DNA from: an uncultured SAR86 cluster bacterium
GTDB lineage: Bacteria > Pseudomonadota > Gammaproteobacteria > Magnimaribacterales > AG-339-G14
Direction: 5' to 3'
DNA: 64,000 bases
NCBI GenBank assembly: GCA_902529935.1
Contig: CABZYK010000003.1
Location: 64,787-128,786, forward strand
Part shown: in pieces, positions 37,522-55,481 of the stretch
How positions within the stretch are numbered: the first letter of the stretch is position 1
How the letters are laid out: each line of letters opens with the position of its first letter
The notes under the pieces: generated by a model
The model's input: only the letters and a program-made list of their open reading frames with translations
Database searches by the model: none
What the model was told of the DNA's origin: nothing
Made by a program: the position numbers and the translations under genes

Positions 37522-37572
37522 GTAGTTTTGACTACATGTATACGATTAAGTTCTCGTGATCTTTCTTATGTG

Positions 37573-37587
37573 CGACTGATTATGTCG
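37573..37587. promoter_or_regulatory. Operator-like site 1: CGACT-GATTA-TGTCG (one arm mismatch)
   Basis: It shares the 14-mer GATTATGTCGTTAA with site 2 at 54108-54121. On the minus strand the spacer reads CATAAT (-10-like). Confidence 0.6.
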
Positions 37588-37610
37588 TTAACAGAATTTA
37601 GGATGTACAG

Positions 37611-37736
37611 ATGATTGCTGAGAGAATGAACAAATACAAGCAGCTAGCCTTTAACTGTATTCTAGGTTGGCTGATCAACGACATCTGGTCATTTATTGAA
37701 AGAGAGGATTTCCCTGAGGAATTAAAAAAAATCTGA
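37611..37736 (+). CDS. 41-aa ORF that is probably the 5' part of the downstream gene (separated by a +1 frame change at an A8 tract)
   Basis: AGGA lies 7 nt upstream of the ATG. The ORF ends just after AAAAAAAA (37724-37731). The +1 frame is open from 37726 into the 37795 ORF. Confidence 0.4.
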   Translation: MIAERMNKYKQLAFNCILGWLINDIWSFIEREDFPEELKKI

Positions 37737-37794
37737 ACAGCAATTCAGGAACCGTCTCGAAGAAATTCAGTCTCTAGCAAAGACACTTAAAAAA

Positions 37795-38556
37795 TTGAGA
37801 CAACTTAATTTTGAATCACTTCTCTACTCAAATCTGCTCGATGAAGATACGGCTATTACCATAAAAAAAGCCGATCAATTAGCAAACATAGATATCAAGC
37901 ATTTAGAAATCGCACAAATTAAAGAATGTTATGAAAACGATATCATCCTTGAAGAAGAAAAATGGTTGGATCGAGTTAAGCCCTTCATTTCTGAGCAAAG
38001 TCCGAGATATATCGAAAATATGTTTAATACGAGAATAAACAGTTGGTATAAAAAACACATCAATTTGCTGACCTTTATGGACGAAGCTCCCCAAAGTCAA
38101 TTATGGTCTGCGTTCAGTGAAATAGTCGTTGCTGGCCATCTCATTCAAGATTTAATCGATGACCAACTAAAAGAGCTCAGTTACTTTAAATACCTTGGCG
38201 ATCAACTAGCTAAAGATGGTTTTGATCTCAAGTCTCAGAAAACCAAAAACTACCTAGAGTTTGAATTCAACTCCACAACTGATCACTTGCGCTCCATCAA
38301 AGATTTTTTTTCTTACTTAGAAAAAGATTACACCAAAATATCATTCGAAGAATTTATGGAGCGATTTAACGGTTTAGAGAAATTACTCCGAAGATGGCAG
38401 GCTGTAGGGATTGTGTCTGCACAAAAAGCTCTTGAACTTGTTAATCAAGAACCTTATCCAAAAATAGATTTTTTTGATTTAGATCAATCTTTTATCGATG
38501 AAGTTAAAGAGCCCAAAAAATGGTACGTTGATGTCAATCAAAGCGTTCTTGTCTGA
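37795..38556 (+). CDS. Hypothetical 253-aa protein (listed start is TTG; probably the 3' part of a frameshifted or slippage-dependent gene)
   Basis: There is no ATG or SD near 37795. The frame is open upstream to 37726. See the related finding. Confidence 0.5.
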   Translation: MRQLNFESLLYSNLLDEDTAITIKKADQLANIDIKHLEIAQIKECYENDIILEEEKWLDRVKPFISEQSPRYIENMFNTRINSWYKKHINLLTFMDEAPQSQLWSAFSEIVVAGHLIQDLIDDQLKELSYFKYLGDQLAKDGFDLKSQKTKNYLEFEFNSTTDHLRSIKDFFSYLEKDYTKISFEEFMERFNGLEKLLRRWQAVGIVSAQKALELVNQEPYPKIDFFDLDQSFIDEVKEPKKWYVDVNQSVLV

Positions 38557-38558
38557 TA

Positions 38559-38945
38559 TCAGTTCCAGCGATAGCTAGCTAGATCTTCCTTAATTTCAAG
38601 CAGCTTTGCCAAATCGGAATTTTTACCGCCTTCTTCTAGGTGCATATCAAAATCAAAATAAACCTCGTCGTTTATTTTTACGAAGACGAGGTCGGTTTCA
38701 ATGCCCTCCAAATTCCAAGTTACTTCAAAAAAACCTTCCGGAAGTTCTTTTGAACTCTCCAAGGATGCAGATTCAAAGAGAAGACCGATAATATCGAGCT
38801 CTTCAGTCATCTTTATCATTGACCGAGAATACATTCTTGGAAAGTTGTAACGAAAAAAACTTCGGATATCGTATCTATGCACATAAAAAAGGTACATAAC
38901 GCCGAGGATAATGATTTGAATGCCGTAAAATTCGTGATCTGTCAT
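38559..38945 (-). CDS. Hypothetical 128-aa protein with one N-terminal TM helix
   Basis: IQIIILGVMYLFYV helix. A 4-nt overlap with the upstream gene. Confidence 0.5.
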   Translation of the reverse strand: MTDHEFYGIQIIILGVMYLFYVHRYDIRSFFRYNFPRMYSRSMIKMTEELDIIGLLFESASLESSKELPEGFFEVTWNLEGIETDLVFVKINDEVYFDFDMHLEEGGKNSDLAKLLEIKEDLASYRWN

Positions 38946-39181
38946 AAGCTTTTTAATATTTTTAATTCTTTTCTTTTAGAGAAATGATTACGGATGCAGT
39001 ATTTACGCGTCACTGAAGCGACCGTCAAAATCATGGTTTGAAAGATCGATAAAGTGAAAGCATTTTCAACTCCCATGCTCATCAGCACTAAAAGAGAGAT
39101 ATAAGATAAGCCCCAGGCGATAGGCAGTGCAAGAGCAGTGTCAGCTAGGGATTCTCTTAATGCAGGTTTATTTATTCTCAT
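38942..39181 (-). CDS. Small membrane protein (79 aa, 2 TM)
   Basis: Two hydrophobic helices and a basic C-terminus. Operon member. Confidence 0.5.
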   Translation of the reverse strand: MRINKPALRESLADTALALPIAWGLSYISLLVLMSMGVENAFTLSIFQTMILTVASVTRKYCIRNHFSKRKELKILKSL

Positions 39182-39185
39182 ATTT

Positions 39186-39437
39186 TTAATGTAGTGATTT
39201 GCTCCTAGCCAAATGTTTCTTAGCCGCCTTATCGTTGAGTATTTCCATCTCAGCAGCCCAGCAAGTTAATATATATCTGGCAGCATTTATGGGGTTCTCA
39301 GCTAGATCGTAGTTTAATTCAATACAATGATGCGTTAGTGCTGAGCAGTAGTGACCCTCATCAAAATCTTCTCTTTTAGAAAATTCCATAAAGACTTTCT
39401 CTAAAGCATCGTATAAGTCAATTTCCAATTTATTCAT
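39186..39437 (-). CDS. Hypothetical 83-aa soluble protein, first gene of a 3-gene operon
   Basis: The ATG at 39437 is preferred over the TTG at 39443. Operator-like site 3 is centred ~31 nt upstream. Confidence 0.5.
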   Translation of the reverse strand: MNKLEIDLYDALEKVFMEFSKREDFDEGHYCSALTHHCIELNYDLAENPINAARYILTCWAAEMEILNDKAAKKHLARSKSLH

Positions 39438-39460
39438 GCTCAAATAATAGGACTTATGAA

Positions 39461-39475
39461 CGACAAAATATGTCG
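39461..39475. promoter_or_regulatory. Operator-like site 3: CGACA-AAATA-TGTCG (perfect arms) in a divergent intergenic region
   Basis: It lies between the minus-strand 83-aa gene and the plus-strand nuclease gene. Like sites 1 and 2, it is preceded by TTATG. Confidence 0.6.
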
Positions 39476-39536: not shown

Positions 39537-40346
39537 ATGGCGAGGCATAGAGGAGTATACGATCCAAATAATCCTGAACCTTATGAATTGAGTCGTTCAC
39601 GTATAGAAGCTTTCATTAATTGTCCTGCTTGCTTTTGGATGGATAGGGTTAAAGGCATAAAGTTTCCAGGAATGCCTGGTTTCTTGCTCAATACTGCTAC
39701 CGATACCCTCTTAAAAAAGGATTTTGATAAATATAGAGCCTTAAAAAAACCGCATCCACTGATGGAATCATACGGTTTGGGGCATCTAGTTCCTTTTGCT
39801 CACGAAGATTTTGAAACTTGGACAAAATCACTTCAATTGGGCTTGAGAACATATTTCAAAGAAGAGAATCTATTGATTGGGGGAGGTTTAGACGATGTCT
39901 GGCATGATAGATTCAAAGACGAAATATTTATTGTTGATTATAAGAGTACTGCAGGACGAAGAAATGCAGATAAAACCGCATTGGAACCAATCAGTTTAAA
40001 CGGTGCCTATAAAGAAAGTTATAAAAGACAGATGGATGTTTATCAATGGATCATGCGAAAAAACGGTTTCAAAGTAAGTAATAAAGGCTATTTTCTTTAT
40101 GTCAACGGAGATCAACATTTTGAAGACGGCATGTTAGATGATGATCCTATGAAAGCGACCATGAAATTTGACGTCCAGTTACTAGAATACAACGGAGATG
40201 ATTCTTGGGTAGAAGATACTATAAAAGAAATATCGAAGTGTTTAAAAAGCTCAGAATGTCCTGATCACTCTATGAACGGCTTTGGTCCGAAGGGCGATCA
40301 GCCCTGTGAGTACCTGATCTTTTTAGACGGAGTCAAGAAAATCTAA
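39537..40346 (+). CDS. PD-(D/E)XK nuclease, Cas4 / RecB-family type with a probable 4-Cys Fe-S cluster
   Basis: GGAG lies upstream of the ATG. N-terminal CPACFW, GGLDDVW (Asp), IVDYKS (D/E-x-K), QMDVYQW (Q..Y), and C-terminal C..CPDH...C. Confidence 0.75.
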   Translation: MARHRGVYDPNNPEPYELSRSRIEAFINCPACFWMDRVKGIKFPGMPGFLLNTATDTLLKKDFDKYRALKKPHPLMESYGLGHLVPFAHEDFETWTKSLQLGLRTYFKEENLLIGGGLDDVWHDRFKDEIFIVDYKSTAGRRNADKTALEPISLNGAYKESYKRQMDVYQWIMRKNGFKVSNKGYFLYVNGDQHFEDGMLDDDPMKATMKFDVQLLEYNGDDSWVEDTIKEISKCLKSSECPDHSMNGFGPKGDQPCEYLIFLDGVKKI

Positions 40347-40476
40347 TGAGGTTCAATCTAGGGCCCTCAGAAAATAGAACACTTCATAAAAATATCACAT
40401 AGGAATTAGATACCTATATTTCTCTATAATTTAAATAAATTGGAAATAATGAAAGAATTTGATAAAAAATAATCAT

Positions 40477-43400
40477 ATGAGTTGGTTTTTAGAAAGAGAT
40501 AGAGCCGATTTTCTTGAAAAGGAAGTTAAATCGTCTATAGATAGAAAAAAACAGGAAGTGAATAGGAATATCACTTATAAAGATCATGTAAATATCCTCA
40601 CTGAATTTATGGATCAAGGGTATATTCACGAAAATTTTTTAATAAATGTAATATGGTTTTTTCATAGATGTAGATTAGATCAATCGTATTCAAACATTTT
40701 AGAATCATTCATTGAGAATTTTCAAAAGGCAGTTGAGTTACAAAAGGCAATTGAAACTGAAGCGCCTTCTTCAGGTAGTGGAGATTTTTTAGCATACACC
40801 AATACGCTTATTAACATCTTTACTTTAGAATTCCAGCAAAATCGATTGGACACTCCCTCTATAGCTTCCTGCCTCTCGGCTGAAGAAAAAGATAGGATAA
40901 ATAAAAAAATTACAGATTTTGAAGAAATATCTTTTCTGAACGAAAAAGCAGGATACTTAGATAAGACTAAGCAGATGAAAATTTTAGAAAAATTCTCGAA
41001 AAGTTCACATTTTGAGAAAGTATCGTATCAACTTGACTTTTTAATGGACATTGCGACCGGCTCAGGAGATGAATCAACTATTGCTGAAGCTCCTCTAAAC
41101 TACTTACTAGAAGAAAATGATGTAATTTCAGATGATTATGGAATATTTGGTTTAGTTGATGATGTTTATGCGATATCAGAGAGTTATTACAAATTAAGAA
41201 ATAGGAATGATCTAGGTCGACTCGTACAAAGCTTTAATCATGAACATGAAAATTTTTATATTCCCAATCTTCAGGATGAGAATAAACCTATATCTTTAGT
41301 TAATGTTGAAGATATAGTAAAAGCCGCGCTGGCAAAGGAAAATGAAGATTATTTTAAGCGGCTCCTTGTTCTCTCAGACATCGGACCTCTACCTATCTTC
41401 ATTGCTTTGGGAAAAGCAATAATTGAGAGACAAAAGCACTCTCACTTTGGTCAAGATGACGTGAAATTTGATTCTGGTGAAAATTTGGTCTTCTTTAATG
41501 AAAAGAATGATACAAGAATCGTAGCAACTTATGCGGGTAAGCGTGGCCAGGATTTTGATCAAAATTTATTATCAGATAACAAAGATGATGAGGTTTTAAA
41601 CGATATGTATGCATTATGGGTTGATAAGGAAAAAAGCTCCATACAGTATGTAACAGAAGCCTTCATAAAAACTGCAAAGCCTACTTCTAGACGTATTTCA
41701 ACAAAAAAAAATATATATAAATTCTTTAATTCTCTTGAGGAAAAACCTCTCAATCATTGGGCAAGGTATAACTTTCCTGAAGGCATTACATCAATTAGAC
41801 ATGAGAAAAAATTATTTATCCTTGGCCAAAAAAATAAAATTTTAGATTTCCTTGATTTAAATTTATTCAACAAATCAATCAAATCATGGTTAGGGCTAAG
41901 AGAATTTACTAAAGATGGGAAATGTATAAATCATGAACAACAAGCAAATCAATTATTTCCTGACCCCTATATATATCTTTTTGCTGACTCTGGAGCATTT
42001 ACCGATGCTCTTGAAAATCAATGGCATGAAACTTGCAGTGAAACTGAAAGATCAGAACCAGAATTAATAATTACATGTGAAGACAATTATTTAAGAGACG
42101 AATATCTTTTAGATACTTTAAAAAGATGTGAGGCTGATGTATTGGTTCTATCATCATTTATTAATAACTATGAAATAAATAAGACAGCTGCTAATGGTTT
42201 TGATCAGATACCAGTTAAGCCAAATGATTACCTATCAGACTTGAATATTAGTGGAATTGATCCTGTAAGTAGGTTTTTTAGTAGATCAAAAGATTTTAAA
42301 ATCTCTATTGAGAATACAAAAAATAATTTTATTGAAAACTTTTATTCTATTAGAAATCTTCTAAAAGATTTATTGTTGGAAGAGAGGCACAAATTTATCA
42401 AGCGTTGTCTTTATAGGATTATTGAAAATCTACAAAATAGAATACTGCCACTAAATGAAGAAGAAAAAGTAAATTTCCAAGAGAATTTTGAAATTCTATT
42501 AAATGAACTTCACGAAATAAGTGCTAATAATTCAAAAGTCAAAAGAGCAATAAATCTTTTGGCTGACTTAAAGCAAGATGCAGAAGATTTTCATAAATTT
42601 GAAGAAATTAAAGATTTTTGCATTAAAAACAATGAACTTAAGACAGTAATCCTTTGTCACAAAAGACAAAAAGAAAGGCTAAATTTTTTAATTTCTGAGG
42701 AAGGATTAAATGCCACGGCTGAGACCTTTACGAATCTTGAGAAGATAGAAATTGTAGGAAAAATCTTAGTTGCAATAGCTCAAAAAAGGGAAATTTCACA
42801 AAAACTAAAGATGTATCGTTATGCTCAGGAGATTTGTTTTCTTTTAAATGATGAAGAGCGAAAGAGTCACCTTAATACGCTCAAAAGGCTTGAAAAATAT
42901 TTTAATAATTATTTTCCTTCATCTGAGGTTAAAGAAGAAATAATAGAGGAAGTTGAGGATTTCAGTTCAAGTTTCACTGAAGAATCAATCGACTTTACCT
43001 ATACCGCTGCTAAATCAAAGTTCTCAGGAGAAGCTGATTCAAGTGTGGAAGCAAAAATGCTGCTTTTGGATGACGAACAGATTTATTTTTCCAGAAATAG
43101 AAGAGATGTCCTTTTCATATCCAGAAGAAGGGGGGATTCGATAGAATATGGCAAAACTGAAGATTTACTATCGGGAGATAAAATTGTGATCTCGGAAGAA
43201 TTCAGTGGCAATGAAATTTTACATCTTTTAATGAATAAAGAAGAAAAATTGAAATATCCTGAATTAGAAGGGCAAGCTCAAATTTGGCAGGATAAGTTAA
43301 AAGAGTATAAAAATGAAAATCATATGGACATATATCAATTAACTGCAGCTTTAAAGGACAATGGAGTTGATAGACATTTCGCTACGGTAAGAAATTGGCT

Positions 43401-43716
43401 AAGTGACCCAGAAACAATTTCGCCTAGGTCTTTTTTTGATCTTCAACAAATTTTTAAACTAGTTGGGGAAAAAGATTCTAAAGTTTTTTATGATTGTAAA
43501 AATAAAGGAAAAGAAGTTTATAGACTGAGAAATGAATGTAAAAAAAGGCTTTTAGAAAAGCTTCAAGATGTTCGGTTTGATGTTGATCAAGATGAAATCT
43601 CATTGATTATTAATGAAAAGCAGATTTCCTTTGGTGTTTATGAGATTAATGCTACTAAAGATATAGTTGTGGAATCATCTCATTTACACAAAATACAAAA
43701 TCTAGATCAGTTCTAA
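40477..43716 (+). CDS. Orphan 1080-aa protein (a DrmE-like role is possible by context only)
   Basis: The ATG at 40477 is preferred over the TTG at 40459. No NTPase or nuclease motif recognised. The segment YLLEENDVISDDYGIFGLVDDVYAI resembles the DUF1232 motif. The stop overlaps the next start (TAATG). Confidence 0.7.
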   Translation: MSWFLERDRADFLEKEVKSSIDRKKQEVNRNITYKDHVNILTEFMDQGYIHENFLINVIWFFHRCRLDQSYSNILESFIENFQKAVELQKAIETEAPSSGSGDFLAYTNTLINIFTLEFQQNRLDTPSIASCLSAEEKDRINKKITDFEEISFLNEKAGYLDKTKQMKILEKFSKSSHFEKVSYQLDFLMDIATGSGDESTIAEAPLNYLLEENDVISDDYGIFGLVDDVYAISESYYKLRNRNDLGRLVQSFNHEHENFYIPNLQDENKPISLVNVEDIVKAALAKENEDYFKRLLVLSDIGPLPIFIALGKAIIERQKHSHFGQDDVKFDSGENLVFFNEKNDTRIVATYAGKRGQDFDQNLLSDNKDDEVLNDMYALWVDKEKSSIQYVTEAFIKTAKPTSRRISTKKNIYKFFNSLEEKPLNHWARYNFPEGITSIRHEKKLFILGQKNKILDFLDLNLFNKSIKSWLGLREFTKDGKCINHEQQANQLFPDPYIYLFADSGAFTDALENQWHETCSETERSEPELIITCEDNYLRDEYLLDTLKRCEADVLVLSSFINNYEINKTAANGFDQIPVKPNDYLSDLNISGIDPVSRFFSRSKDFKISIENTKNNFIENFYSIRNLLKDLLLEERHKFIKRCLYRIIENLQNRILPLNEEEKVNFQENFEILLNELHEISANNSKVKRAINLLADLKQDAEDFHKFEEIKDFCIKNNELKTVILCHKRQKERLNFLISEEGLNATAETFTNLEKIEIVGKILVAIAQKREISQKLKMYRYAQEICFLLNDEERKSHLNTLKRLEKYFNNYFPSSEVKEEIIEEVEDFSSSFTEESIDFTYTAAKSKFSGEADSSVEAKMLLLDDEQIYFSRNRRDVLFISRRRGDSIEYGKTEDLLSGDKIVISEEFSGNEILHLLMNKEEKLKYPELEGQAQIWQDKLKEYKNENHMDIYQLTAALKDNGVDRHFATVRNWLSDPETISPRSFFDLQQIFKLVGEKDSKVFYDCKNKGKEVYRLRNECKKRLLEKLQDVRFDVDQDEISLIINEKQISFGVYEINATKDIVVESSHLHKIQNLDQF

Positions 43717-45440
43717 TGTTAACGCTCATTCCTCAATATCAACCTAAAAAAGATAACAAAGGAAAAATGATTCCTAAAGCAGAAGTGAGCTTTTTTGAAA
43801 CAATAAAAAAACAAAAGGATCAATTAAATGAGTGGATGGTTTTTTGGAATATTCATATTGATGAGCATCTTTCAAAGCAAGATGGTCAAGTTGATTTTAT
43901 TTTTCTTGGGAAAAAAGGGCTGTTCGTTGTCGAGGCTAAAGGTGGAGATAGTTACGTTGTAAAAGGAAATAAACATTATTATTTTTACAAATCCCAAGGA
44001 ATGAATTCTGATTATGCGCAAAATGAATCCGCCTTAACTCAGGCAGAAGGAAATATGCGTTCTATCGAGAATTATATAAGAAACAAAATACCCACAACTA
44101 AGGTCAATATTAAGAAACGAGTTATTGGATTTGGAGCTGTTCTTCCATTTATCGATACCACTAATATTGATTCAGGAATTCAATTTAACAGTGGACAAAT
44201 TTATGGGTCTCAATCAACAAGCATCTCAGATTTTCTTGATTTTTTAATAAAGCATAGCAAGGCAAAACTGCAAGGAGAAAGAGAGCAATTTTCGGACTCT
44301 GAGTTAAACGTAATTAGAAACCATCTTCAAATTGAAATGAAATGCGTCAGTAAATTTTATCTTTCTCAATCTGAACATAATGAAATTATGATGCTAGAAA
44401 GCAATCAACAAACTCTGGCAAGCTATTTTTTATCTAAATCTCACTCAAGATTTTTAATTGAAGGCGGGGCAGGAACTGGAAAAACAGTTTTAGCAAAGTA
44501 TTTTGCACACAGCTTAATTAATGATAACAAAAAAGTTTTATGGATTTCCTTCAATAAGTTGTTTACTGAGCATATAAAAGAATATTTTGGCGATATTGGC
44601 AAAATTGAAATTATTTCAGCTACAAAATTTAAAATGAACATAATTAAACAAAATACTGGACAAATAGTCACGACCGGTGTTGAAGACAATGATTTTGATA
44701 AAAAATTTCTTGAAGCTGCAAGTATGGATAAAGACTCTTTAGATTATGACTTCATTATTATGGATGAAGCACAAGATATCCTCAGTGGTGATTTTTTTTG
44801 GGGGATGGACGAATTAATAAAGGGAGGATTTGATGAATCATCATGGGCAATTTTCTTAGACTCTGAATCGCAAGCACATGTATTCAACCGCCTAGATCGC
44901 GATGCTTTGCAGCATTGCAAGCAAAAATCTGATTTTGAAGAATCACTTATTGAGAACTATAGAAATCCTAGAAAAATTGTAAAAAATTTATATGAATATT
45001 TGGGAAAAGAACCACCTGAAGCTAAAAGAGAATTTGAAGGAGAGATTATAGAAAAAAAAGTACAAGAATCTTTGGAAAAAACCCTTTTGAATATAGTAAA
45101 AAAAGAGGACAAACCAGTTGTTCTATCTACAGTAGCGGAAATTAAATTTTTTGGAGATAAGTTTGATAATAAGAAATTTTTTGAGTTAAGCAATGAAAAA
45201 TATTTTCTACAATCTCTCGGAAATGAAAAAATAAGCCAAACAGTTTTAAGAAATTACGATACAAGAAAAGCTAAACCCATAGAAGCAACAAACATTCATA
45301 CCTTTAAGGGACTAGAAAGTGAAGTGATTATTCTCGTGATTGATAAAGAAGAACTCGAAGAGAAAAGAGAAGAGTTCTCTTATCGATACTATACTGGATT
45401 ATCCAGAACATTGGGAAAAGCATATTTAGTATTAACTTAA
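43716..45440 (+). CDS. NERD-domain nuclease-like + SF1 (UvrD-like) helicase fusion
   Basis: N-terminal NERD pattern (QVDFIFLGKKGLFVVEAKGG), Walker A GGAGTGKT, Walker B IIMDEAQD, NYRNP, and C-terminal IHTFKGLESEVIILV. Confidence 0.8.
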   Translation: MLTLIPQYQPKKDNKGKMIPKAEVSFFETIKKQKDQLNEWMVFWNIHIDEHLSKQDGQVDFIFLGKKGLFVVEAKGGDSYVVKGNKHYYFYKSQGMNSDYAQNESALTQAEGNMRSIENYIRNKIPTTKVNIKKRVIGFGAVLPFIDTTNIDSGIQFNSGQIYGSQSTSISDFLDFLIKHSKAKLQGEREQFSDSELNVIRNHLQIEMKCVSKFYLSQSEHNEIMMLESNQQTLASYFLSKSHSRFLIEGGAGTGKTVLAKYFAHSLINDNKKVLWISFNKLFTEHIKEYFGDIGKIEIISATKFKMNIIKQNTGQIVTTGVEDNDFDKKFLEAASMDKDSLDYDFIIMDEAQDILSGDFFWGMDELIKGGFDESSWAIFLDSESQAHVFNRLDRDALQHCKQKSDFEESLIENYRNPRKIVKNLYEYLGKEPPEAKREFEGEIIEKKVQESLEKTLLNIVKKEDKPVVLSTVAEIKFFGDKFDNKKFFELSNEKYFLQSLGNEKISQTVLRNYDTRKAKPIEATNIHTFKGLESEVIILVIDKEELEEKREEFSYRYYTGLSRTLGKAYLVLT

Positions 45441-45456
45441 GCTTAATATTAAATGC

Positions 45457-47400: not shown

Positions 47401-50400
47401 CTTGAGTTTGTTCGTTTTTAACTATTTCTACTTGTAAATCAGAATTTCGCATACTTGTTGGAGCAGAAAAAACAGCACCCTCACCAACAGGAAATCCAGG
47501 GTCAAAAAGTCTCGTGTCAGATGGTCTTCCTCCCATTTTACCCCATTCATCAATATTGCCAGATTTTTTCCAACGATCCTTAATTCTCTTTAATTCATTT
47601 TTTACCATATCAAGCTCTTCCGGATCTGATTTTTTTACTGAATCTAGAATCCAATCTTCAGCTAATTTAAATCTTTCCTTGTCTTCTTTTTCACTATAAG
47701 TGGGATTATTTATATCTTTCCCAAAACTTAAAACAAGTGAAGCAAAAATTGCAGGCAAACCTCGTTTTCTGGCTCCCGAAGAGAAGGGTGTAACACTCAC
47801 AGTCTCAACATATCTATAGATAGACTGATGATAATTTTTAAACATTTCATAAATAGATCTATCTTTGGATTTTGCATGATTAAAAATAGTTACAACTAAA
47901 CCGGGATTTCTTCGCCCTACTCGTGAAGAAGCTTGAATGTATTCCGCAGTAGTTTTAGGCTGACCATGAACTAACATAAGGCCTAGTCTTGGGATATCTA
48001 CCCCCACTGAAATCATATTTGTTGCTAATAAAATATCTATTCCTTTAACTGTATCTTCGGCGCTTCTAAAAGTTTGAGTCCAAGGAATATTGATTTCTTC
48101 TAAGATGCTTTCTATTTCATCTTGACTTCTTCTGCCGGTCAATTCTCTTATCTTTTTAATTTGTCTCGAGAACCTTGTGAGCTTATCATCAACAGATCCA
48201 AATTTCCCTCTGTTAAAATTTTTTGCATTTCTTCTTAAGGAAGCATTGAGATTTTGTTTCTGATTGCTCATGTAGGCTAGCTCTCTTTTACTGTTGAAAT
48301 ACCATACGGCAGTTCCAAAGGGATCAAAAGACATCTCTTTTGAAGTTGGCAAAGGATATATAGTGTCTCCTTCCGCTAAGTTATGATTAAATTTTTCTTT
48401 TAAACCTAATTTAAATCCTAGTTCATCAGCTTTTTCTATATAGCTTATATCGTATTTAGCGACTTCCTTTCCATCGTAAAAAGTAAAGCTACTATCTTCT
48501 TTCAACGATGATAGTGGAGAGACGTAAAGATGATCAACTCCTTTCTTGACTTTTGATTTAGTCATTGGAAGTATGTCATTTGGGCTCTGAAGTAATGGAA
48601 TTGCTGCTGAAACGGAAGACTCAATCATAGAACCTTTCGAAGAGCCAAAATAACCCATATAAATCCTACCTGGTACATCCTTGGTATCTCTCTCAGTAGC
48701 AAAAAAAGAATCTTCCCAATCAATTACTTGCGGGGGGAAAATATTGGATCTCCTACCGCGGTAAAGAGATTTAGCCTGATCACCCGAAAAAGTAAGAGTA
48801 GCTGAAGCACCAACTATTTTCGGTATCTGATTTTCAGTTGACATTAGTTTCATGACAACATTTTCAAATAAACCAACCATAGTTCCTAGAGGTCCAGAAA
48901 TTAAATGAAGTTCATCCTGAATTATCATCTCTGGAGGATCGTATTGGTCATTTTTAATTAACTCTATGGCCTCTTTTCGCCAACATAATTTAGCAAAGTT
49001 ATCTACAGTCCCCAGAAGCAAAGTTGGCTTTTCTTGAAAAATTGATTCTTCCCATAAGAACACGGGCAATTCTTCATAGAAAATACATTTTTTATCAGAA
49101 CACTTTATTATTGCCTTCCCCTGTCTGCGAACATAGCCTCTGTCATCTGGATGAGAAATTTTTGATTTACACCAAGGGCATTGATGAAGAACGAACTTAT
49201 AATTTCCTTGATCATCTTTACCAGATCGATCTTGACCATTTAATATTCTAATTGCATTTGCATGAGTATTTGGATTACCTTTTGAGCCTATCCAAAGTCC
49301 CAAAGATATCATTTTATCTCCTAGATTTAGATTTAGAATTCCATGTCTTCTGATAAATTCCAGAGCACAAATTAAAGCTGAAGATCTCCTAAATTGATCA
49401 GAAGTAAGTAATCTCAAGGTATATCTCATTAATGAAGTTACCCCAGCATTATTTGGATTTCTGAGTCTTCTTAATAAAATGTTGAAAGCAATCAAACCTA
49501 AATAAGCCTCAGTTTTTCCACCGCCAGTTGGAAACCAAATCAGATCTACTTGTTCTCTTAATTCAGAATATTCTTCTGGCTCTACTATTTCGGGCAATAT
49601 AGTAAGGATGAATGCTATTTGAAATGGTCGCCAACTTCCCTTTAGCCCTGTATGCTTTAAGTTCTTGAGTGATTCAATAAATTCAAGCTCTAATTCAAAA
49701 TTTTGATCCTGGTCTTTTTTAATAATTAGTTCTTCATCCTTATCTTTTTTTTCTAACTTATTTAAACGATTCATCTGAAGCAGCATTGCATGATTCATAA
49801 GTCTGAAGCATTTATCAGCCTCATCGTTTTTCTTAATCATATTTAATCCAACTTTCATTCTGCTTAAACATTCCCGAGCATTTGACAGATTTTTCTCAGC
49901 TATTTGCACGAAAGCATCATCCAAAGTATTTTTTTTGTTTTCTTGATCGTCTAGCCAATTTGAATAATTCTGAATAAGATCTTCTAAAGGTTGATATCTA
50001 CCGCTAGTATCTTCATCATTGAGATCGGCAAATTTACTCATGCTTAAATTATCTGAATCTAGTGCTTGTATGCTTTTTGTTTCAAAGGTTGGCACAAAAG
50101 AAGACGAAATAATTTTACAATCATTAGAATTATGATTTTCCTCCCAATCTGAGGCGCAACCCTTTCCAATTGCATAAGACCTCTTGTTTCTGAAAAGTAA
50201 ATCTAGAGTCTCTGCATTCTCTCCATATCCTGATTGGAATGGATTTTTTATAGGTAAAAAACCTGAATCTAGATTTTCTATTTTCATACCTACTTGATAA
50301 TAAATATCCTCTTCATTTTTGCTTTTATTAAACATGGAGATGGAACAAATAATTTTGTCTCTTTTTCTAAATACTTTTACCGAAATAGATAGGCTTTCAT

Positions 50401-50899
50401 TAATCTCGAGAAGCTGAGATCCCAACGCAATATCAACTTCGATTTCATCAATCGTCTTATTTCTTTTCCAAGTATCATTTTCTTTTTTATATTTTGAAAA
50501 GCCGTATAAAATTTTTAATCTATCATCTGTTGCTAGCAAGAAATTCAATCCGAACGCAGAAGGATTATTTTGGGTGGACAGATCGATTATATTTGAAGAC
50601 TCAGAATTGTCTTCATCGTCATCAGCCTCAGGTTGATAGCCTAAACCGGTGTCATTTTCTATTTCTTCTTCTTCAACTTCAATTTCAATGGATTCATTTT
50701 CATGATCAGATGATGAAGAAATGTCAGTTATTTGAGGGTATAAAATTCCTGATATAAATTGATATTTGGGATTAACAGTAATTTCTTCCTCAAGTTCATC
50801 TTCCCAATTACCTCCATAAATTGTTTTTTTAAAGTCACCTATGACTGCTTTTCTAGCTTGAAGAAATTCTTCAAGATTGGGATTAGGTAAGTTTTTCAT
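47387..50899 (-). CDS. drmA: Large SF2 helicase, DISARM DrmA-like
   Basis: FPTGGGKTEAY (motif I), IIQDELHLISGPLG (motif II), ATNMISVGVDIPRL and YIQASSRVGRR (motifs V/VI), behind a ~430-aa N-terminal region with an acidic tract. Confidence 0.8.
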   Translation of the reverse strand: MKNLPNPNLEEFLQARKAVIGDFKKTIYGGNWEDELEEEITVNPKYQFISGILYPQITDISSSSDHENESIEIEVEEEEIENDTGLGYQPEADDDEDNSESSNIIDLSTQNNPSAFGLNFLLATDDRLKILYGFSKYKKENDTWKRNKTIDEIEVDIALGSQLLEINESLSISVKVFRKRDKIICSISMFNKSKNEEDIYYQVGMKIENLDSGFLPIKNPFQSGYGENAETLDLLFRNKRSYAIGKGCASDWEENHNSNDCKIISSSFVPTFETKSIQALDSDNLSMSKFADLNDEDTSGRYQPLEDLIQNYSNWLDDQENKKNTLDDAFVQIAEKNLSNARECLSRMKVGLNMIKKNDEADKCFRLMNHAMLLQMNRLNKLEKKDKDEELIIKKDQDQNFELELEFIESLKNLKHTGLKGSWRPFQIAFILTILPEIVEPEEYSELREQVDLIWFPTGGGKTEAYLGLIAFNILLRRLRNPNNAGVTSLMRYTLRLLTSDQFRRSSALICALEFIRRHGILNLNLGDKMISLGLWIGSKGNPNTHANAIRILNGQDRSGKDDQGNYKFVLHQCPWCKSKISHPDDRGYVRRQGKAIIKCSDKKCIFYEELPVFLWEESIFQEKPTLLLGTVDNFAKLCWRKEAIELIKNDQYDPPEMIIQDELHLISGPLGTMVGLFENVVMKLMSTENQIPKIVGASATLTFSGDQAKSLYRGRRSNIFPPQVIDWEDSFFATERDTKDVPGRIYMGYFGSSKGSMIESSVSAAIPLLQSPNDILPMTKSKVKKGVDHLYVSPLSSLKEDSSFTFYDGKEVAKYDISYIEKADELGFKLGLKEKFNHNLAEGDTIYPLPTSKEMSFDPFGTAVWYFNSKRELAYMSNQKQNLNASLRRNAKNFNRGKFGSVDDKLTRFSRQIKKIRELTGRRSQDEIESILEEINIPWTQTFRSAEDTVKGIDILLATNMISVGVDIPRLGLMLVHGQPKTTAEYIQASSRVGRRNPGLVVTIFNHAKSKDRSIYEMFKNYHQSIYRYVETVSVTPFSSGARKRGLPAIFASLVLSFGKDINNPTYSEKEDKERFKLAEDWILDSVKKSDPEELDMVKNELKRIKDRWKKSGNIDEWGKMGGRPSDTRLFDPGFPVGEGAVFSAPTSMRNSDLQVEIVKNEQTQDAIQ

Positions 50900-50911
50900 A
50901 CTTAATAATAA

Positions 50912-52204
50912 TTAAAATCTTTTATGGGTGAGCAATATATTTTTGAAGTGCTTTCCAATCTCATAAGCAAGCTTTACTGGAACAGCATTTCCTATCTGAG
51001 TATATTTAGGAACCTCTCTTTCAAAATTTAACTCCTTAGGATTTCCTGCTCTTCTGATACCACCTGTGGTTCTTTTTCCGCAGAACTTATACCAATCTGG
51101 AAAAGTTTGTAATCTTGCCCATTCTCTTACAGTTAGAGACCTAGGTTGAGCATAATGCACAAAATCATCAGGCAATGAGGTTGCAGTAATAGTCGGTCCT
51201 TTATTACCCCATCTTTTTGGTAAAAGTCTTTGGGCAAATTTTTTAGTTTTGAGGTTCTCTGGAATTTGACCATTGTTTTTTAGCATGTAAGCGAATTTTT
51301 CTTCAACCTTTTGAGAGTGATTGCTATATTTATGATCAGTTAAAGTATCTCCTTTCATGGAAATTTTATTTGACCGAAAACCTTTTCTTATATTTCTTTG
51401 CCATTTATTTTTCGGATTACTCGGATAGACATTAGTTTGACCACCATTAATAAACTTTCTATCAATTATGTCAGAAAAAACTTCATCCAGATTTGGATAA
51501 TCGTATTTAGGTGCGGGAAGAAAACCATTTAGTAAAGCGTCATGATCATTAACTAAATTCACAGGAATTTTTTTATTAATTCCAATTATCAGAACCCTAG
51601 GTCTATTTTGTGGAACCCCATAGTCTTTTGAAAAAATTAGCTTAAATTTAACGTTATAGTTTGTAATTTTTTTAAAGGCATTTAAAACTTCATAAAAAAC
51701 TTCACCTTTTCTTCCTTCAGGATTCCATTTTGATCTAAGTAGGCCTTGAACGTTTTCGAATAAAAAAATCTTTGGTTCAACTCTTCTTATGAAAAACGCC
51801 ATATCTTGGAACAAGTGATTGGATGGAAGCTGATCTCTCTTAACAGGATAAGATCTTCTGATGCCTAATCGAGAAAATCCCTGACAAGGAGGCCCACCAA
51901 CCACTAAATCAACAGTATCTTTTGAGAAGTCTCTTTGAAAGGAAAGTTCCAATTCATTGAATAAATTCTTAAAAAAATTTCTTTTATAAATCTCATCCCT
52001 TAAATCATGAGAATGAAATTTCTCTCTTAAGTGGGGATAATTTTTATCTCTATTAGAAAGATATGTTTCAAGAGCATCTACATTCAATTCGTTGACGTAT
52101 AAAGGAAAAAAACCAGCTTGTTCAAGGCCTAAAGATAAACCACCACATCCCGCAAACAAATCAATGAATGTTAGTTTATTCTTCTCTATTTTGAGTTTCT
52201 TCAA
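50912..52204 (-). CDS. drmMII: DNA (cytosine-5) methyltransferase (DrmMII-like position)
   Basis: Motif I FIDLFAGCGG, motif IV GGPPCQGFS, motif VI FENVQGL, motif VIII QNRPRV, motif X GNAVPV. Confidence 0.9.
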   Translation of the reverse strand: MKKLKIEKNKLTFIDLFAGCGGLSLGLEQAGFFPLYVNELNVDALETYLSNRDKNYPHLREKFHSHDLRDEIYKRNFFKNLFNELELSFQRDFSKDTVDLVVGGPPCQGFSRLGIRRSYPVKRDQLPSNHLFQDMAFFIRRVEPKIFLFENVQGLLRSKWNPEGRKGEVFYEVLNAFKKITNYNVKFKLIFSKDYGVPQNRPRVLIIGINKKIPVNLVNDHDALLNGFLPAPKYDYPNLDEVFSDIIDRKFINGGQTNVYPSNPKNKWQRNIRKGFRSNKISMKGDTLTDHKYSNHSQKVEEKFAYMLKNNGQIPENLKTKKFAQRLLPKRWGNKGPTITATSLPDDFVHYAQPRSLTVREWARLQTFPDWYKFCGKRTTGGIRRAGNPKELNFEREVPKYTQIGNAVPVKLAYEIGKHFKNILLTHKRF

Positions 52205-53078
52205 GTTGCTCTGCTCCCTTATTCAACTCTCTTCCCAAGACATTAATTCTAGTTTGCATATTTGAAACTTCTTTTACAGAAGCGTCTAATTTCGTCAACA
52301 CCTTTTCGGTACTGGCATCAAACTGTTTGAATTGATCTTTAATTTTTCTGACAACTTCTGCCACCAAGCCGGCCGTTTCATTCAGCCTTAAATAGTGATG
52401 CCCCATCCTTACTGTATCTAAAAATGCTGCCAAAGTATTTGGACCTTGTATTAATATTCGTTTTTGAGAGAGGCAGTCTTGTCTAAGGTTTTCAATTTGA
52501 CCTATTAAATCATTAAGTTTTTCGGAGGCTAAATAAAGGATTCCATAATCTGTGGTGGTATTTTGCAAAATGTATTTATTAGCAATATCATCTGCGTCGT
52601 TTAGGATCGCTGTTTTAAGTTGTCTTAATACCCTAGATTTCTCTGTTTGAGTTTTTGCTTCGTGATAATTGCCATAAAGTCCAGCATAAAACTTCGAATC
52701 AATCGGAATTAGCAGGCCATCAGCAGTCGAGACTGCACAATCTACTTGATCTTGAGTCCTAGGGTTAATGATATGTTGAAAGTTAAAGCTACCCTCAGGC
52801 ATGATCTCGCTGACAATAGATTCGAGACTCCACTCACCTAATCTGCCGGTAGAAACGTTGCCTCCTAAAAATCTATTTAATTCATTTATTGGGGCTGTAA
52901 CAGACTGCAATTGATTTTCAATTTCATTGATGTCTTTAGTGACTACGTCCAATTTATTTTCAAGATATTCTGAAGATGAAGTTTCTTTTATATCTTTGTC
53001 TCTAATTTTTATAACAAGGAACCCTAAAAGACCTAAAGTAATTGAAGATAAAAGAATGGCAACTACATTTAAGATCAT
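52176..53078 (-). CDS. rmuC: RmuC-family protein (short, 300 aa; N-terminal TM + coiled coil + RmuC nuclease-like domain)
   Basis: AILNDADDIANKYI, YGILYLASE and KRILIQGPNTLAAFL match RmuC-domain blocks, from memory. It overlaps the methyltransferase start by 29 nt. Confidence 0.7.
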   Translation of the reverse strand: MILNVVAILLSSITLGLLGFLVIKIRDKDIKETSSSEYLENKLDVVTKDINEIENQLQSVTAPINELNRFLGGNVSTGRLGEWSLESIVSEIMPEGSFNFQHIINPRTQDQVDCAVSTADGLLIPIDSKFYAGLYGNYHEAKTQTEKSRVLRQLKTAILNDADDIANKYILQNTTTDYGILYLASEKLNDLIGQIENLRQDCLSQKRILIQGPNTLAAFLDTVRMGHHYLRLNETAGLVAEVVRKIKDQFKQFDASTEKVLTKLDASVKEVSNMQTRINVLGRELNKGAEQLEETQNREE

Positions 53079-54077
53079 TTAATAAATATCCTTTAATTTC
53101 AATGCTAATTCTTTAAATTTTGCTCTCAAGGCTTTAGGTGCGAGCACTTCTACATCGGCACCAAAACTCATAAGCCATTGTTCAAATTGTAAAGTATCTG
53201 GAACTCTTGCTGTAACTAATAATCTTCCATCTGATAATTCTTTTTCAGTCTGAGTACCATTGAGTTTTGTTTCCGTTAAGTGCGCCGCCATGGTTTTATT
53301 AAATATTGCTTTAAAAGTATAAAGTTTATCGCTGTTTGTAAATCCGAGGTTATTGGTATGAATAAAATCATCCAAACTAAAATTCTCAGGTTGCTTTATT
53401 TTTTGATCTGTTAATAACTCAACCTCTTTAAACCTATGAATTGGTAGATATCTCGGCGTTATAGGATCTTCATCCATCATGCATATAAGATAAGTCATGC
53501 TCCCTTTCACAACGATTGCCATTGGATGCATATGCCTTAAATCAGCTTCTTTTTCTCCTCTCTTTCGATACAAAGCTTTCAGTTGAATACCTTCGAATAC
53601 TGCTTGATATATTTTTTGTCTGATTTCTGATTTTACTGGCGCTTCCTTAAAGCGGATTGTCTCAGGAATCACACGGACCCTTTTCCGCCATCTCAAAACA
53701 TTTGATTTTTCATTACCGGTAAGAACTTTTTCAGCTCTTTTAAAAAATTTTTCTACTCTTTTAAAGCTTGCTTTAGGCATAAGAGGCTCTAAATATTGGG
53801 CCGCCAGTGAAAAGGTAAGAGCTTGTATTGGGTCCATAGCAGGAAATTCATATCCTGGTGAATCTTTCTTCCAACTCCACCCAAAAGGGGTGCTTCTGTC
53901 ATCGCATTCAATGGGAAAAATTCTGGAAAGTTCATTTAAATCCCTTTGCACAGTTCTAAGGCTTGTTTCATAACCAAAGTTATCGAGACCTTGTTTTATT
54001 TCTGTTGCAGTAACTTTGACCGGGTATCTTTTTATTAACTCAGTCATTTTGATCATTCTTAAGACGCTATCGCTCAT
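53079..54077 (-). CDS. wHTH-WYL-WCX transcriptional regulator (BrxR / CapW / YafY type)
   Basis: N-terminal wHTH (TSLRTVQRDLNELS). WYL-like core (LKALYRKRGE...HPMAIVVKGSMTYLICMM...RYLPIHRF). C-terminal WLMSFGADVEVLAPKALR. Its stop abuts the rmuC start. Confidence 0.85.
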   Translation of the reverse strand: MSDSVLRMIKMTELIKRYPVKVTATEIKQGLDNFGYETSLRTVQRDLNELSRIFPIECDDRSTPFGWSWKKDSPGYEFPAMDPIQALTFSLAAQYLEPLMPKASFKRVEKFFKRAEKVLTGNEKSNVLRWRKRVRVIPETIRFKEAPVKSEIRQKIYQAVFEGIQLKALYRKRGEKEADLRHMHPMAIVVKGSMTYLICMMDEDPITPRYLPIHRFKEVELLTDQKIKQPENFSLDDFIHTNNLGFTNSDKLYTFKAIFNKTMAAHLTETKLNGTQTEKELSDGRLLVTARVPDTLQFEQWLMSFGADVEVLAPKALRAKFKELALKLKDIY

Positions 54078-54099
54078 GTCATAATTTTATAGTTTATGC

Positions 54100-54120
54100 T
54101 AACGACAGATTATGTCGTTA
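54100..54120. promoter_or_regulatory. Operator-like site 2: perfect 8-bp-arm palindrome TAACGACA-GATTA-TGTCGTTA upstream of the WYL regulator gene
   Basis: Centred 33 nt upstream of the ATG at 54077. On the minus strand it reads ...ACGACATAATCTGTCGT..., with a -10-like CATAAT inside the site. Confidence 0.75.
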
Positions 54121-54193
54121 AAATAATTTTTTCACATATTATCAATCAGATAGAAGATTGCCACTAAGATTACGAAAGCAATTAATCCAAGAG

Positions 54194-55171
54194 TCATTTT
54201 CTCAGCCTCTGATACCCGCTCAAATGAATAATGCTACTTTGTTTGGATATAGCTCCTAAGGAAATATCTAGCTGAGGATAATTTAAAACAACCTCGCTGC
54301 CCTCATAAGGCCCTGGTAATACCTTTTCTTTCAGACTTTTGATTAAGGTAACAAATTTATCTTTGATCTCACTTTTACTAAAAGGCGTTCGATATATTAA
54401 ATAAGGATCTTTTGAATTTTCAAGTTCTATAGCATCGATTAGAATGCTTCTTGTTAGTTTTTTTGAATATTTAGAATATAAAGCAGGTGAATTAAAGAAT
54501 TCAATTCCTAGACAAGTATTTTTTAAATAAAAAATGAACCCAACCTGATCTTTTAATTCTTTAACTTTTAAAGATAGCTGTTTAAGTGAAGAGTTTGCAT
54601 TTCTGTAAGTATCATTTATGGAGGATGTAAGGGATCTTACGTTCATATTTCTTTGCTTTTCTTGAATATCTTTCCATACTTCAGACTGATTTGAATGTTT
54701 TCTGCCCGTATTTATTTTCGATTCATTTACATAAAACATCTTGTTTCCTTTTGCTCTAAAATTATGTAAATCGTCTGAATAGTTAAATTTGCCGTAAGTC
54801 GATGACCATCTGTTCTGTTCAACACAACTTACGTCCATCATGAATTCACCATGGCCAGAAAGTAAAGTGGAATCATTGAGAGTTCTATTTTGCTTAGCTC
54901 CTTCAATTATTTCTCCATTGAGCAAAAGAACATCTTGACCAGATTTATTTTTAATTTTTACCTTACTAACGTCTCCTGTTTCCATAACTTCAAAATCATC
55001 AAGATTTATGGCTTCTTCAAGAGATAATAAATTGCTTGAGGAGAATTCATTTAGCTTTTTAGTAATAGGGAAGAGGGTAAGAGTTTCACTAATTTCTTCT
55101 CCTTGAAGTATTAAAAGTTGATTAATTTCTTTTTCTAATTCGCTTGATTGGGCATTTCTGATGTCTGTCAT
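54194..55171 (-). CDS. Hypothetical 325-aa protein (contains LLNGEIIEGAKQNRTLN...VSCVEQNRW block; possibly DUF6569/ARPP-1-like, from memory)
   Basis: Clean ORF with a 4-nt overlap with the upstream DUF4258-like gene. The family call is unverified. Confidence 0.55.
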   Translation of the reverse strand: MTDIRNAQSSELEKEINQLLILQGEEISETLTLFPITKKLNEFSSSNLLSLEEAINLDDFEVMETGDVSKVKIKNKSGQDVLLLNGEIIEGAKQNRTLNDSTLLSGHGEFMMDVSCVEQNRWSSTYGKFNYSDDLHNFRAKGNKMFYVNESKINTGRKHSNQSEVWKDIQEKQRNMNVRSLTSSINDTYRNANSSLKQLSLKVKELKDQVGFIFYLKNTCLGIEFFNSPALYSKYSKKLTRSILIDAIELENSKDPYLIYRTPFSKSEIKDKFVTLIKSLKEKVLPGPYEGSEVVLNYPQLDISLGAISKQSSIIHLSGYQRLRK

Positions 55172-55446
55172 TTTAAGTAGATCCTTTTTGTAATTTTCAT
55201 AGCTGTGATAACTACATCACCATTGCAAACGACAGCAGTATTTTTGATGAATTTGTCATAGGATTTTAAGAAATCTTTATGTTCGTATTTAAGTGAGCGC
55301 AATATCTTTTTTGGGATAAAGTATTTTTTATTTCCATGAGTGTTCAAAGATTTTCCATTATCAATAATGAATTTCACAACCTTAGGAGGAATTCCCCTAT
55401 TTTGGCAGCGATGCTTCGCGTGATTAGTAAATATAGTATCTTTCAT
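55168..55446 (-). CDS. DUF4258-like small protein (toxin-like fold)
   Basis: The ATG at 55446 is preferred over the TTG at 55455. FTNHAKHRCQNRGIPPKVV resembles the H..R...RGI signature of DUF4258. Confidence 0.55.
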   Translation of the reverse strand: MKDTIFTNHAKHRCQNRGIPPKVVKFIIDNGKSLNTHGNKKYFIPKKILRSLKYEHKDFLKSYDKFIKNTAVVCNGDVVITAMKITKRIYLK

Positions 55447-55448
55447 AT

Positions 55449-55481
55449 ATGACAATATATGTCATATGACAATTTATGTCA
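55449..55481. promoter_or_regulatory. Operator-like sites 4a/4b: two abutting palindromes ATGACA-ATATA-TGTCAT and ATGACA-ATTTA-TGTCA
   Basis: Read directly. They have the same half-site core and 5-nt spacer as sites 1-3, and lie in the divergent region between the DUF4258-like gene and the 513-aa gene. Confidence 0.6.

Follow-up and report, generated by a model that had tools for sequence, protein, structure and literature searches.

A DriD-type box at the promoters of a WYL regulator and neighbouring genes in a variable genomic island of SAR86

A palindromic DNA site recurs at the promoter of a WYL-domain regulator and at other promoters of a genomic island in a 64-kb stretch of DNA from an uncultured SAR86 bacterium (the window, i.e. 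the whole stretch that was analysed). By sequence, three copies of this palindrome (sites 1, 2 and 3) are the published DriD box, the site bound by the DriD regulator of Caulobacter crescentus. Comparison with related loci identifies the palindrome as a genuine cis-element tied to the WYL regulator; this protein very probably binds the box, and sites 1–3 can with considerable confidence be taken to form its regulon. A preliminary description of the window had drawn five palindromes together into one regulon, an idea that holds for sites 1–3, where a box at the regulator's own promoter is accompanied by boxes at other promoters of the island and the arrangement is conserved in orthologous loci.

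Palindromes in the window match the DriD box

All five palindromes of that description (sites 1–3 and the tandem sites 4a and 4b, which are treated separately below) are present with exactly the letters and coordinates given there, and the observation is confirmed. The regulator and the three sites on which the argument is built are as follows.

37573–37587, no strand: site 1, DriD-type box CGACTGATTATGTCG
39461–39475, no strand: site 3, DriD-type box CGACAAAATATGTCG
54100–54120, core box 54103–54117, no strand: site 2, TAACGACAGATTATGTCGTTA, in the promoter of the WYL gene
53079–54077, minus strand: WYL regulator, 332 amino acids (aa), with Pfam WYL and WCX domains and, in the structure model, a winged helix-turn-helix (wHTH) and three predicted helices

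The centre of site 2 lies 33 nt 5' of the WYL start codon (ATG at 54077). The identical 14-mer reported for sites 1 and 2 (GATTATGTCGTTAA) was found again, as was TTATG at 2–4 nt upstream of each of sites 1–3. The DNA crystallised with Caulobacter DriD is ATACGACAGTTACTGTCGTAT, and the DriD box, with the consensus C1G2xC4-(x)7-G12xC14G15 and an AT-rich centre, was found in the promoters of 68 of 69 driD homologues of alpha-proteobacteria (PMC10853764). Sites 1–3 match this consensus exactly, as do 26 boxes in 14 orthologous genome loci, and a box stands in the promoter region of the regulator itself both in the window and in all 14 of these loci.

Exact matches to GACA-N5-TGTC number four in the window (0.52 expected; none of 100 shuffles reached four), while exact CGAC-N7-GTCG occurs three times, at sites 1–3 and nowhere else, against 0.07 expected (none of 100 shuffles reached three). 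When one mismatch to GACA-N5-TGTC is allowed, the class as a whole is not enriched in the window (14 against 16.4 expected); this definition was dropped, and the DriD-box definition and a matrix built from orthologous loci were used instead. Site 1 is supported despite belonging to that unenriched class, because its mismatch falls on position 5, its sole asymmetry, outside the critical bases C1 G2 C4 / G12 C14 G15, which are all intact.

The box is conserved in related SAR86 loci

A search with the regulator returned 283 homologues, chiefly from marine metagenomes. Our comparison set comprised 14 SAR86 genome loci (L001–L014), whose WYL orthologues are 57–73% identical, and three metagenome loci that include the WYL gene (L015–L017). 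Whether orthologous islands keep the motif was a question left by the preliminary description: they do, at the WYL gene of all 14 genome and all three metagenome loci. A perfect box lies upstream of the WYL gene, or of its small leader gene, in 17 of the 18 SAR86 loci, the eighteenth being L015 with a single mismatch (G12 to A), whereas the box is perfect in L016 and L017. In some loci a leader gene of 65–69 aa separates the box from the WYL gene.

Every exact GACA-N5-TGTC in the 14 genome loci (21 of 21) is flanked by C and G, although this flank was absent from the search pattern. Five more sites in these loci carry one inner mismatch and retain the outer CG, so that C1 and G15 are invariant in 26 of 26 boxes. 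Together with the three boxes of the window, all 26 lie outside open reading frames (ORFs) of at least 100 aa, in sequence that accounts for only 10.3% of the 341 kb examined. From the orthologous loci alone we derived a symmetrised 21-nt matrix and ran it over the window, where site 3 scored 25.4 bits, site 2 24.7 bits and site 1 17.2 bits, the next best match reaching 8.7 bits; the three matches above 13 bits compare with 0.09 in 300 shuffles. Within the 341 kb scanned, every box above 13 bits is intergenic and lies within these islands, including additional boxes away from the WYL gene. Locus L001 carries a box identical to site 1 at the equivalent place, and three gene families recur beside boxes, namely DUF7220 (79 aa), the 83-aa family and the 65–69-aa leader gene.

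Palindromes of this kind could also be RNA hairpins or intrinsic terminators, or by-products of AT-rich promoter sequence that no protein binds. Sites 2 and 3 were indeed flagged as terminator-like on the plus strand in our scan. The stems of sites 1–3 are only 5–8 bp long, site 2 has no plus-strand gene to terminate, the arms are unchanged in sequence across orthologues of 57–73% protein identity, every variant site has its pairing broken on one side without a compensating change, and no Rfam match was obtained. We rejected a terminator or RNA reading of sites 1–3 on account of these invariant arms, the absence of compensatory change and the lack of an Rfam match, and consider the explanation as a whole scarcely credible. 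It is reasonable for sites 4a/4b only, where one arm of 4b is itself a TTGACA −35 element and the palindrome TGAC-N7-GTCA is only marginally enriched.

Boxes occupy a fixed position relative to −10 elements

Promoter geometry was analysed for 31 boxes, each in both directions (62 directions), with a −10-like hexamer defined as having A at position 2, T at position 6 and at least four of six matches to TATAAT. Such a hexamer lies at offset 10 or 11 from the box in 46 of the 62 directions, against 8.4% expected from other offsets (binomial p = 1.9e-36, a value inflated by related sites), and the peak at offset 11 (36 hexamers against about 2.6 per background offset) is unmistakable. Each box sits at the would-be −35 position, the promoter-proximal TGTCG ending 10–11 nt before the −10, and the dominant arrangement is TGTCG-N11-TAnnnT. 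A −10 occurs on both sides of 17 of the 31 boxes. No −35 element was found at a usable distance from the −10 at the boxes; the distal half-site GACA is 21 bp from it and therefore cannot serve as one. An ATG follows 5–8 nt after the hexamer in 27 of the 46 directions (commonly 6–7 nt), and because the start codon comes so soon after the −10, leaderless mRNAs are predicted. The preliminary description had placed a −10-like hexamer inside the site; the orthologous sites have a 5-nt centre that is AT-rich but contains no conserved hexamer, and the conserved −10 is located 10–11 nt outside the box. Two further regularities were seen around the boxes: TGA recurs 6–8 nt after the box, just 5' of the −10 (e.g. 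L002 4995, L004 8922, L006 9770 and L014 16481), and −10-like hexamers are over-represented also at offsets 1 and 4.

By sequence, this arrangement is the published geometry of the DriD and PafBC activators. In promoters devoid of a −35, DriD boxes cover the −35 position, always equally far from the −10, and driD itself is served by a bidirectional promoter (PMC13004042). When we aligned by box the promoter oligonucleotides used for cryo-electron microscopy (cryo-EM) of DriD, each of the three showed, on our own reading, a CAA that begins 11 nt beyond the box. For PafBC the consensus is tGTCgg-N10-tAnnnT (PMC8635444), and the homodimeric WYL activator SiwR binds a palindrome between −10 and −35 (PMC10693628). 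A rigid spacing between box and −10 is to be expected of an activator that touches RNA polymerase; a repressor needs none.

Predicted promoters and target genes at sites 1–3

The predicted promoters and the genes adjoining them are listed here.

37599–37613, plus strand: predicted leaderless promoter with −10 TAGGAT (37599–37604) 11 nt after site 1, then 6 nt and ATG at 37611
37611–38556, plus strand: target gene of site 1, homologous to an intact 314-aa ORF of L001
35726–37521, minus strand: 74-aa/522-aa operon, a weaker possible target of site 1
39435–39449, minus strand: predicted leaderless promoter with −10 TATTAT (39449 to 39444) 11 nt after site 3, then 6 nt and ATG at 39437
38559–39437, minus strand: operon of 83-aa, 79-aa (DUF7220, membrane) and 128-aa genes, canonical target of site 3
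39537–45440, plus strand: operon of a Cas4-like PD-(D/E)XK nuclease, a 1085-aa protein and a NERD-helicase, adjoining site 3; membership uncertain
54075–54091, minus strand: WYL promoter with TATAAA at offset 11 (54091 to 54086) overlapping TAAAAT at offset 13 (54089 to 54084), then 6 nt and ATG at 54077
45457–53078, minus strand: genes packed tightly downstream of the WYL gene, namely RmuC (52176–53078), C5 methyltransferase (50912–52204), DrmA-like helicase (47387–50899) and DrmB-like protein (45457–47400)

Judged by this geometry, the canonical predicted targets are the 83/79/128-aa operon at site 3 (minus strand) and the split gene of the 314-aa type at 37611 at site 1 (plus strand). The arrangement at site 2 is near-canonical and the same in L015–L017; its predicted target is the operon of WYL, RmuC, C5 methyltransferase, DrmA and DrmB, presumed to be a single transcription unit from its overlaps and short gaps.

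Two assignments of the preliminary description changed direction in consequence of these spacings. Site 1 had been assigned to the 74/522-aa operon, on whose side the half-site is imperfect (AGTCG) and the hexamer at offset 11 is GATCAC (GATCAT in L001), a weak arrangement; the perfect half-site, canonically spaced, is instead the one toward the plus-strand gene at 37611. Site 3 had been assigned also to the Cas4-like operon, but its canonical side is that of the 83/79/128-aa operon, and no −10 was found at offsets 10–13 towards the Cas4-like operon, which is a weak candidate. In L008, canonical geometry is seen before a 232-aa gene that is followed by a Cas4-like gene.

In the window an additional A divides the site 1 target gene into ORFs of 41 aa (37611–37736) and 253 aa (37795–38556). 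A run of eight A at 37724–37731 corresponds to seven in L001, and could be a sequencing error, a pseudogene or homopolymer slippage.

The WYL regulator is a distant relative of DriD

By sequence and fold the regulator is nearer to DriD and PafBC, both activators, than to the BrxR/CapW repressors. In a sequence search of the PDB its only matches were to DriD (1.7e-9), and Foldseek gave E-values of 5e-14 for DriD, 2.7e-12 for PafBC, 3e-8 for CapW and 3.6e-7 for BrxR. The best Foldseek matches were DriD chains with low template modelling scores (about 0.3), because the structure model is of moderate quality (predicted local distance difference test, pLDDT, 71). Alignment by hhalign to a DriD-like alignment gave 96% probability over the WYL and WCX domains, and in alignments to DriD only some of the residues that contact single-stranded DNA (ssDNA) look conserved, R178, Y192 and R204 pairing with R181, Y196 and R209. 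A search for DriD homologues returned mostly truncated proteins. Sequence comparison thus places the regulator as a distant DriD-like relative; orthology was rejected, given 25% identity over 83 aa and an hhalign match confined to WYL and WCX.

In DriD, Arg37 reads G2, Arg41 reads the guanine opposite C4 and Glu40 touches C1 (PMC10853764). The recognition helix of the SAR86 protein reads S39-L-R41-T42-V-Q44-R45...F54-P55 and that of the DriD homologue P0212 S35-R-R37-T38-A-E40-R41...F50-P51; a manual gapless alignment, made in a domain that profile methods leave unaligned, pairs R41, Q44 and R45 with R37, E40 and R41. All three residues are invariant in 19 SAR86 homologues. A profile of the N-terminal 82 residues matched only ArgR-type wHTH domains in the PDB.

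The attribution of the boxes to the WYL protein is made from sequence, within 64 kb of this genome, and another transcription factor encoded elsewhere might bind them, the co-occurrence of boxes and WYL gene being indirect. We regard this as very improbable: a box is present at the WYL gene of every locus, whatever genes surround it, its sequence equals that of the solved DriD–DNA complex, and the arginines that by manual alignment would read guanine are conserved.

Activation or repression

Activation triggered by ssDNA, as in DriD, PafBC and SiwR, is the mode of action that we favour, if with some reserve, the ligand and the sign of regulation both being inferred. The WYL regulator of the island would bind sites 1–3 as a dimer; ssDNA arising from damage or from degradation of phage DNA would bind its WYL domain; and the ssDNA-bound dimer would engage the box and recruit RNA polymerase to promoters that lack a −35. 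The outcome would be activation and not derepression.

The preliminary description had proposed the opposite sign, with a repressor of the BrxR/CapW type occluding the promoters and leaving them upon a phage or stress signal, so that the defence operons are derepressed. The wHTH-WYL-WCX architecture is common to the regulator, BrxR and CapW, and an operon of defence type (RmuC, C5 methyltransferase, DrmA and DrmB) begins with the WYL gene. BrxR operators likewise have a 5-bp central spacer, two R-boxes being present in the single island of pEFER (PMC9122601), and WYL genes often precede RmuC (Shield) systems, repressing them (PMC10270631). The overlap of sites 4a/4b with a canonical promoter (see below) would suit repression too. 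Yet the motif is the DriD box and the protein lies nearer to DriD and PafBC: PDB sequence searches found DriD but neither BrxR nor CapW, and Foldseek puts the latter two six to seven orders of magnitude below DriD. With 332 aa and a predicted helical linker the regulator resembles DriD and PafBC, whereas the BrxR/CapW chains listed have about 266–290 residues. BrxR of Acinetobacter has an SRQQ motif and 10-bp half-sites over a canonical −35; here the motif is R-T-x-Q-R (LRTVQR), the conserved half-site is 5–6 bp and not 10–11 bp, there is no −35 at usable spacing, and only 4a/4b overlap a canonical promoter. The −10 stands at a fixed 10–11 nt outside the box, a rigidity that a repressor would not require, and the buried −10 once proposed as its target is not conserved. 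Repression of this type therefore seems less likely to us.

Several points nevertheless weigh against activation by a DriD-like protein. The setting in a defence island and the box in the regulator's own promoter fit BrxR/CapW repression, and a repressor on a box at about −38 to −24 would hinder RNA polymerase at these promoters as well. The absence of a −35 may be general in AT-rich SAR86 promoters. In the window, the best −10 of the WYL promoter is at offset 13, or is the imperfect TATAAA at 11, and site 3 and site 1 have no good −10 on the sides toward the Cas4-like and 74/522-aa operons. The predicted structure is mediocre in quality (pLDDT 71, falling to 37–58 in the three-helix linker, residues 83–133), the BLASTP match to DriD (E = 1e-4) is limited to the WYL domain, and profile methods (profile search, hhalign) gave no alignment of the helix-turn-helix (HTH) to DriD. 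Finally, many of the orthologous sites are phylogenetically related, so that p-values are overstated.

Sites 4a and 4b

The two remaining palindromes and the promoter that they overlap are the following.

55449–55481, no strand: sites 4a/4b, tandem TGACAATATATGTCA and TGACAATTTATGTCA at 55450–55481; membership of the regulon doubtful
55454–55482, minus strand: sigma-70 promoter TTGACA-17-TATATT, 11 of 12 matches, facing the DUF4258/ARPP-1 operon
54194–55446, minus strand: DUF4258 and ARPP-1 genes

Their description as the same operator as sites 1–3 could not be sustained. Both read TGACA...TGTCA, keeping G2/C4/G12/C14 with C1/G15 changed to T/A; with the orthologue matrix 4a scores 7.4 bits and 4b 2.2 bits, which is background level; and they overlap the canonical promoter TTGACA-17-TATATT, the best sigma-70 match of the region, which is composed of the 4b arm and the 4a centre. 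Neither stands in the canonical box-to-(−10) geometry. The palindrome TGAC-N7-GTCA occurs twice in the window (0.41 expected), a marginal excess reached by six of 100 shuffles, and the two copies count as one event because they are a tandem duplicate. Both are conserved in L015 and partly in L018, and no such repeats were found between the DUF4258 and 513-aa homologues of L010 and L013.

On the side of membership, changing C1/G15 to T/A weakens DriD binding only about four-fold (PMC10853764), the bapE promoter also has two putative boxes (PMC13004042), and the ARPP-1 homologue of L001 has a box CGTCA-N5-TGTCG with CATAAT 11 nt later. On balance we doubt, from sequence, that 4a/4b belong to the regulon; if the WYL protein does bind them, that sigma-70 promoter would be repressed.

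A different palindrome, AAAGCGA-TATTTTT-TCGCTTT with 7-bp arms, takes the position of 4a/4b in L016 (about 2355–2380) and L017 (about 2487–2512); the outer arms are similar to the sequence flanking the WYL box, and this palindrome is 2 bp shorter.

The island and its exchangeable cargo

Boxes persist while cargo is exchanged, at a hotspot beside dsbB. The cargo seen so far consists of a DISARM-like set, helicase–nuclease operons, and RmuC with methyltransferases. In the window, PADLOC identified DrmA (E = 2.8e-186) and DrmB (E = 5.8e-75), and the C5 methyltransferase also matches DrmMII models; among the ten island proteins scanned there was no match to DrmC or DrmE, RmuC being present instead, and PADLOC gave no match for RmuC, the 1085-aa protein, ARPP-1 or the 513-aa protein. 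The nuclease/1085-aa/NERD-helicase operon (plus strand) converges on the WYL operon (minus strand), upstream of which lie ARPP-1 and DUF4258, with the 513-aa gene diverging from them. The flanks of the island in L001 have about 97% protein identity to the window and its cargo differs: the WYL operon carries an N6/N4 methyltransferase, and a second box precedes an operon whose last gene encodes a UvrD-type helicase fused to a PD-(D/E)XK nuclease.

Small genes recur at the boxes. In six loci (L008–L013) the box separates a DUF7220 homologue from the WYL gene, the two genes pointing away from each other; a search for more distant DUF7220 homologues returned only near-identical SAR86 proteins. Members of the 83-aa family stand beside boxes in L001, L008 and L012, the layout of the window being repeated in L008 (83-aa homologue, box, operon with a Cas4-like gene).

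We would put forward, tentatively, a more general picture: a DriD-type activator sensing ssDNA may be the master switch of the hypervariable dsbB-side hotspot of SAR86, where one symmetric box would fire two divergent leaderless promoters and act as a portable socket, placing exchangeable cargo and conserved small proteins (including DUF7220) under the control of DNA damage or phage DNA.

Other features of the island were noted in passing. It extends over about 35.7–59.4 kb at a conserved SAR86 hotspot beside dsbB (59452–59976) and an 890-aa gene. In 11 of the 14 loci the WYL gene has an RmuC homologue with it, and the cargo between conserved box-bearing promoters varies by genome; in the window RmuC, ahead of the DISARM-like set, is membrane-anchored and reminiscent of Shield ShdA. 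DUF4258 diverging from a 513- to 610-aa gene is a recurring SAR86 module (window 55168–57067; L010 about 18977–20996; L013 about 18312–20592), and translational coupling joins DUF4258 and ARPP-1 in the window. A hydrophobic mini-ORF of 21 aa (MTLGLIAFVILVAIFYLIDNM, 54132–54197, minus strand), whose peptide is conserved in L015–L017, overlaps the ARPP-1 stop codon via ATGA and ends just before the WYL box. The 167-aa ORF at 34720–35223 (plus strand) has a C-terminal domain homologous to the 65–69-aa leader ORFs of L002–L007 and L014, and no box was found upstream of this gene in the window. Between the 513-aa gene and dsbB (57159–58967, plus strand) lie three further island genes; by eye, two of them encode an HD-domain-like protein of 173 aa and a nucleotidase-like protein of 150 aa, and the third encodes a protein of 240 aa.

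Implications and comparison with known systems

SAR86 is one of the most abundant uncultured groups of marine heterotrophs, and because every box above 13 bits in the 341 kb is intergenic and within these islands, the box makes the regulon predictable from sequence alone, without cultures. The DriD box and its geometry have been described in Caulobacter and alpha-proteobacteria; their occurrence in SAR86 would extend them to gammaproteobacteria. WYL control of defence islands is now pictured as derepression, while the geometry and protein affinities described here point to activation by ssDNA, which, if true, would mean that inducible immunity follows another logic here. DUF7220 and the other small orphan genes would become candidate effectors induced by damage or phage, and a symmetric box with a −10 on both sides is a testable design for the co-firing of divergent leaderless promoters.

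The closest parallel is DriD of C. crescentus (PMC9186387, PMC10853764, PMC13004042). The two systems share one box, CGAC-N7-GTCG around an AT-rich centre (CGACA-GTTAC-TGTCG is contained in the crystallised site), and it lies in the regulator's own, often bidirectional, promoter, over the −35 position at a fixed distance to the −10 and without a −35. The proteins are alike in length (about 330 aa) and in their WYL and WCX domains; a wHTH and a helical linker, as in DriD, are predicted for the SAR86 protein, and manual alignment gives both a recognition helix R-T-x-(E/Q)-R. The host here is a gammaproteobacterium and not an alphaproteobacterium, and the predicted regulon is a variable island (RmuC, methyltransferases, DISARM-like or helicase–nuclease genes and small orphan proteins) without didA, recA or bapE. 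DriD has Glu at position 40 where the SAR86 protein has Gln, C1/G15 being invariant in SAR86, and whereas 17 of 31 boxes here have a canonical −10 on both sides, DriD activates in one direction only according to cryo-EM.

PafBC of mycobacteria (PMC8635444), which works by sigma adaptation, shares the arrangement, its tGTCgg-N10-tAnnnT being equivalent to TGTCG-N11-TAnnnT with no −35, but is a heterodimer that places one HTH on one half-site and contacts sigma region 4, in contrast to the single gene and symmetric box found here. SiwR (PMC10693628) resembles the SAR86 regulator as a homodimer on a palindrome between −10 and −35, and differs in its motif, in which the conserved triplet at −26 is GGA. 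Both are actinobacterial WYL activators that sense ssDNA, a property that the SAR86 protein may share by analogy.

BrxR and CapW (PMC9122601, PMC9122589) have in common with the present system a place at the head of defence genes, a palindrome with a 5-bp centre, several sites per island and the wHTH-WYL-WCX architecture; they are shorter, less similar proteins and documented repressors, with longer half-sites (10–11 bp) of other sequence in operators over canonical −35/−10 promoters. DISARM comprises DrmA, DrmB, DrmC and a methyltransferase with DrmD or DrmE, of which DrmA, DrmB and a C5 methyltransferase are present here, DrmC and DrmE being unmatched among the ten proteins scanned. The motif and the kind of regulator are thus already known; what is new is the host, the defence-type regulon and the symmetric, bidirectional design with predicted leaderless promoters.

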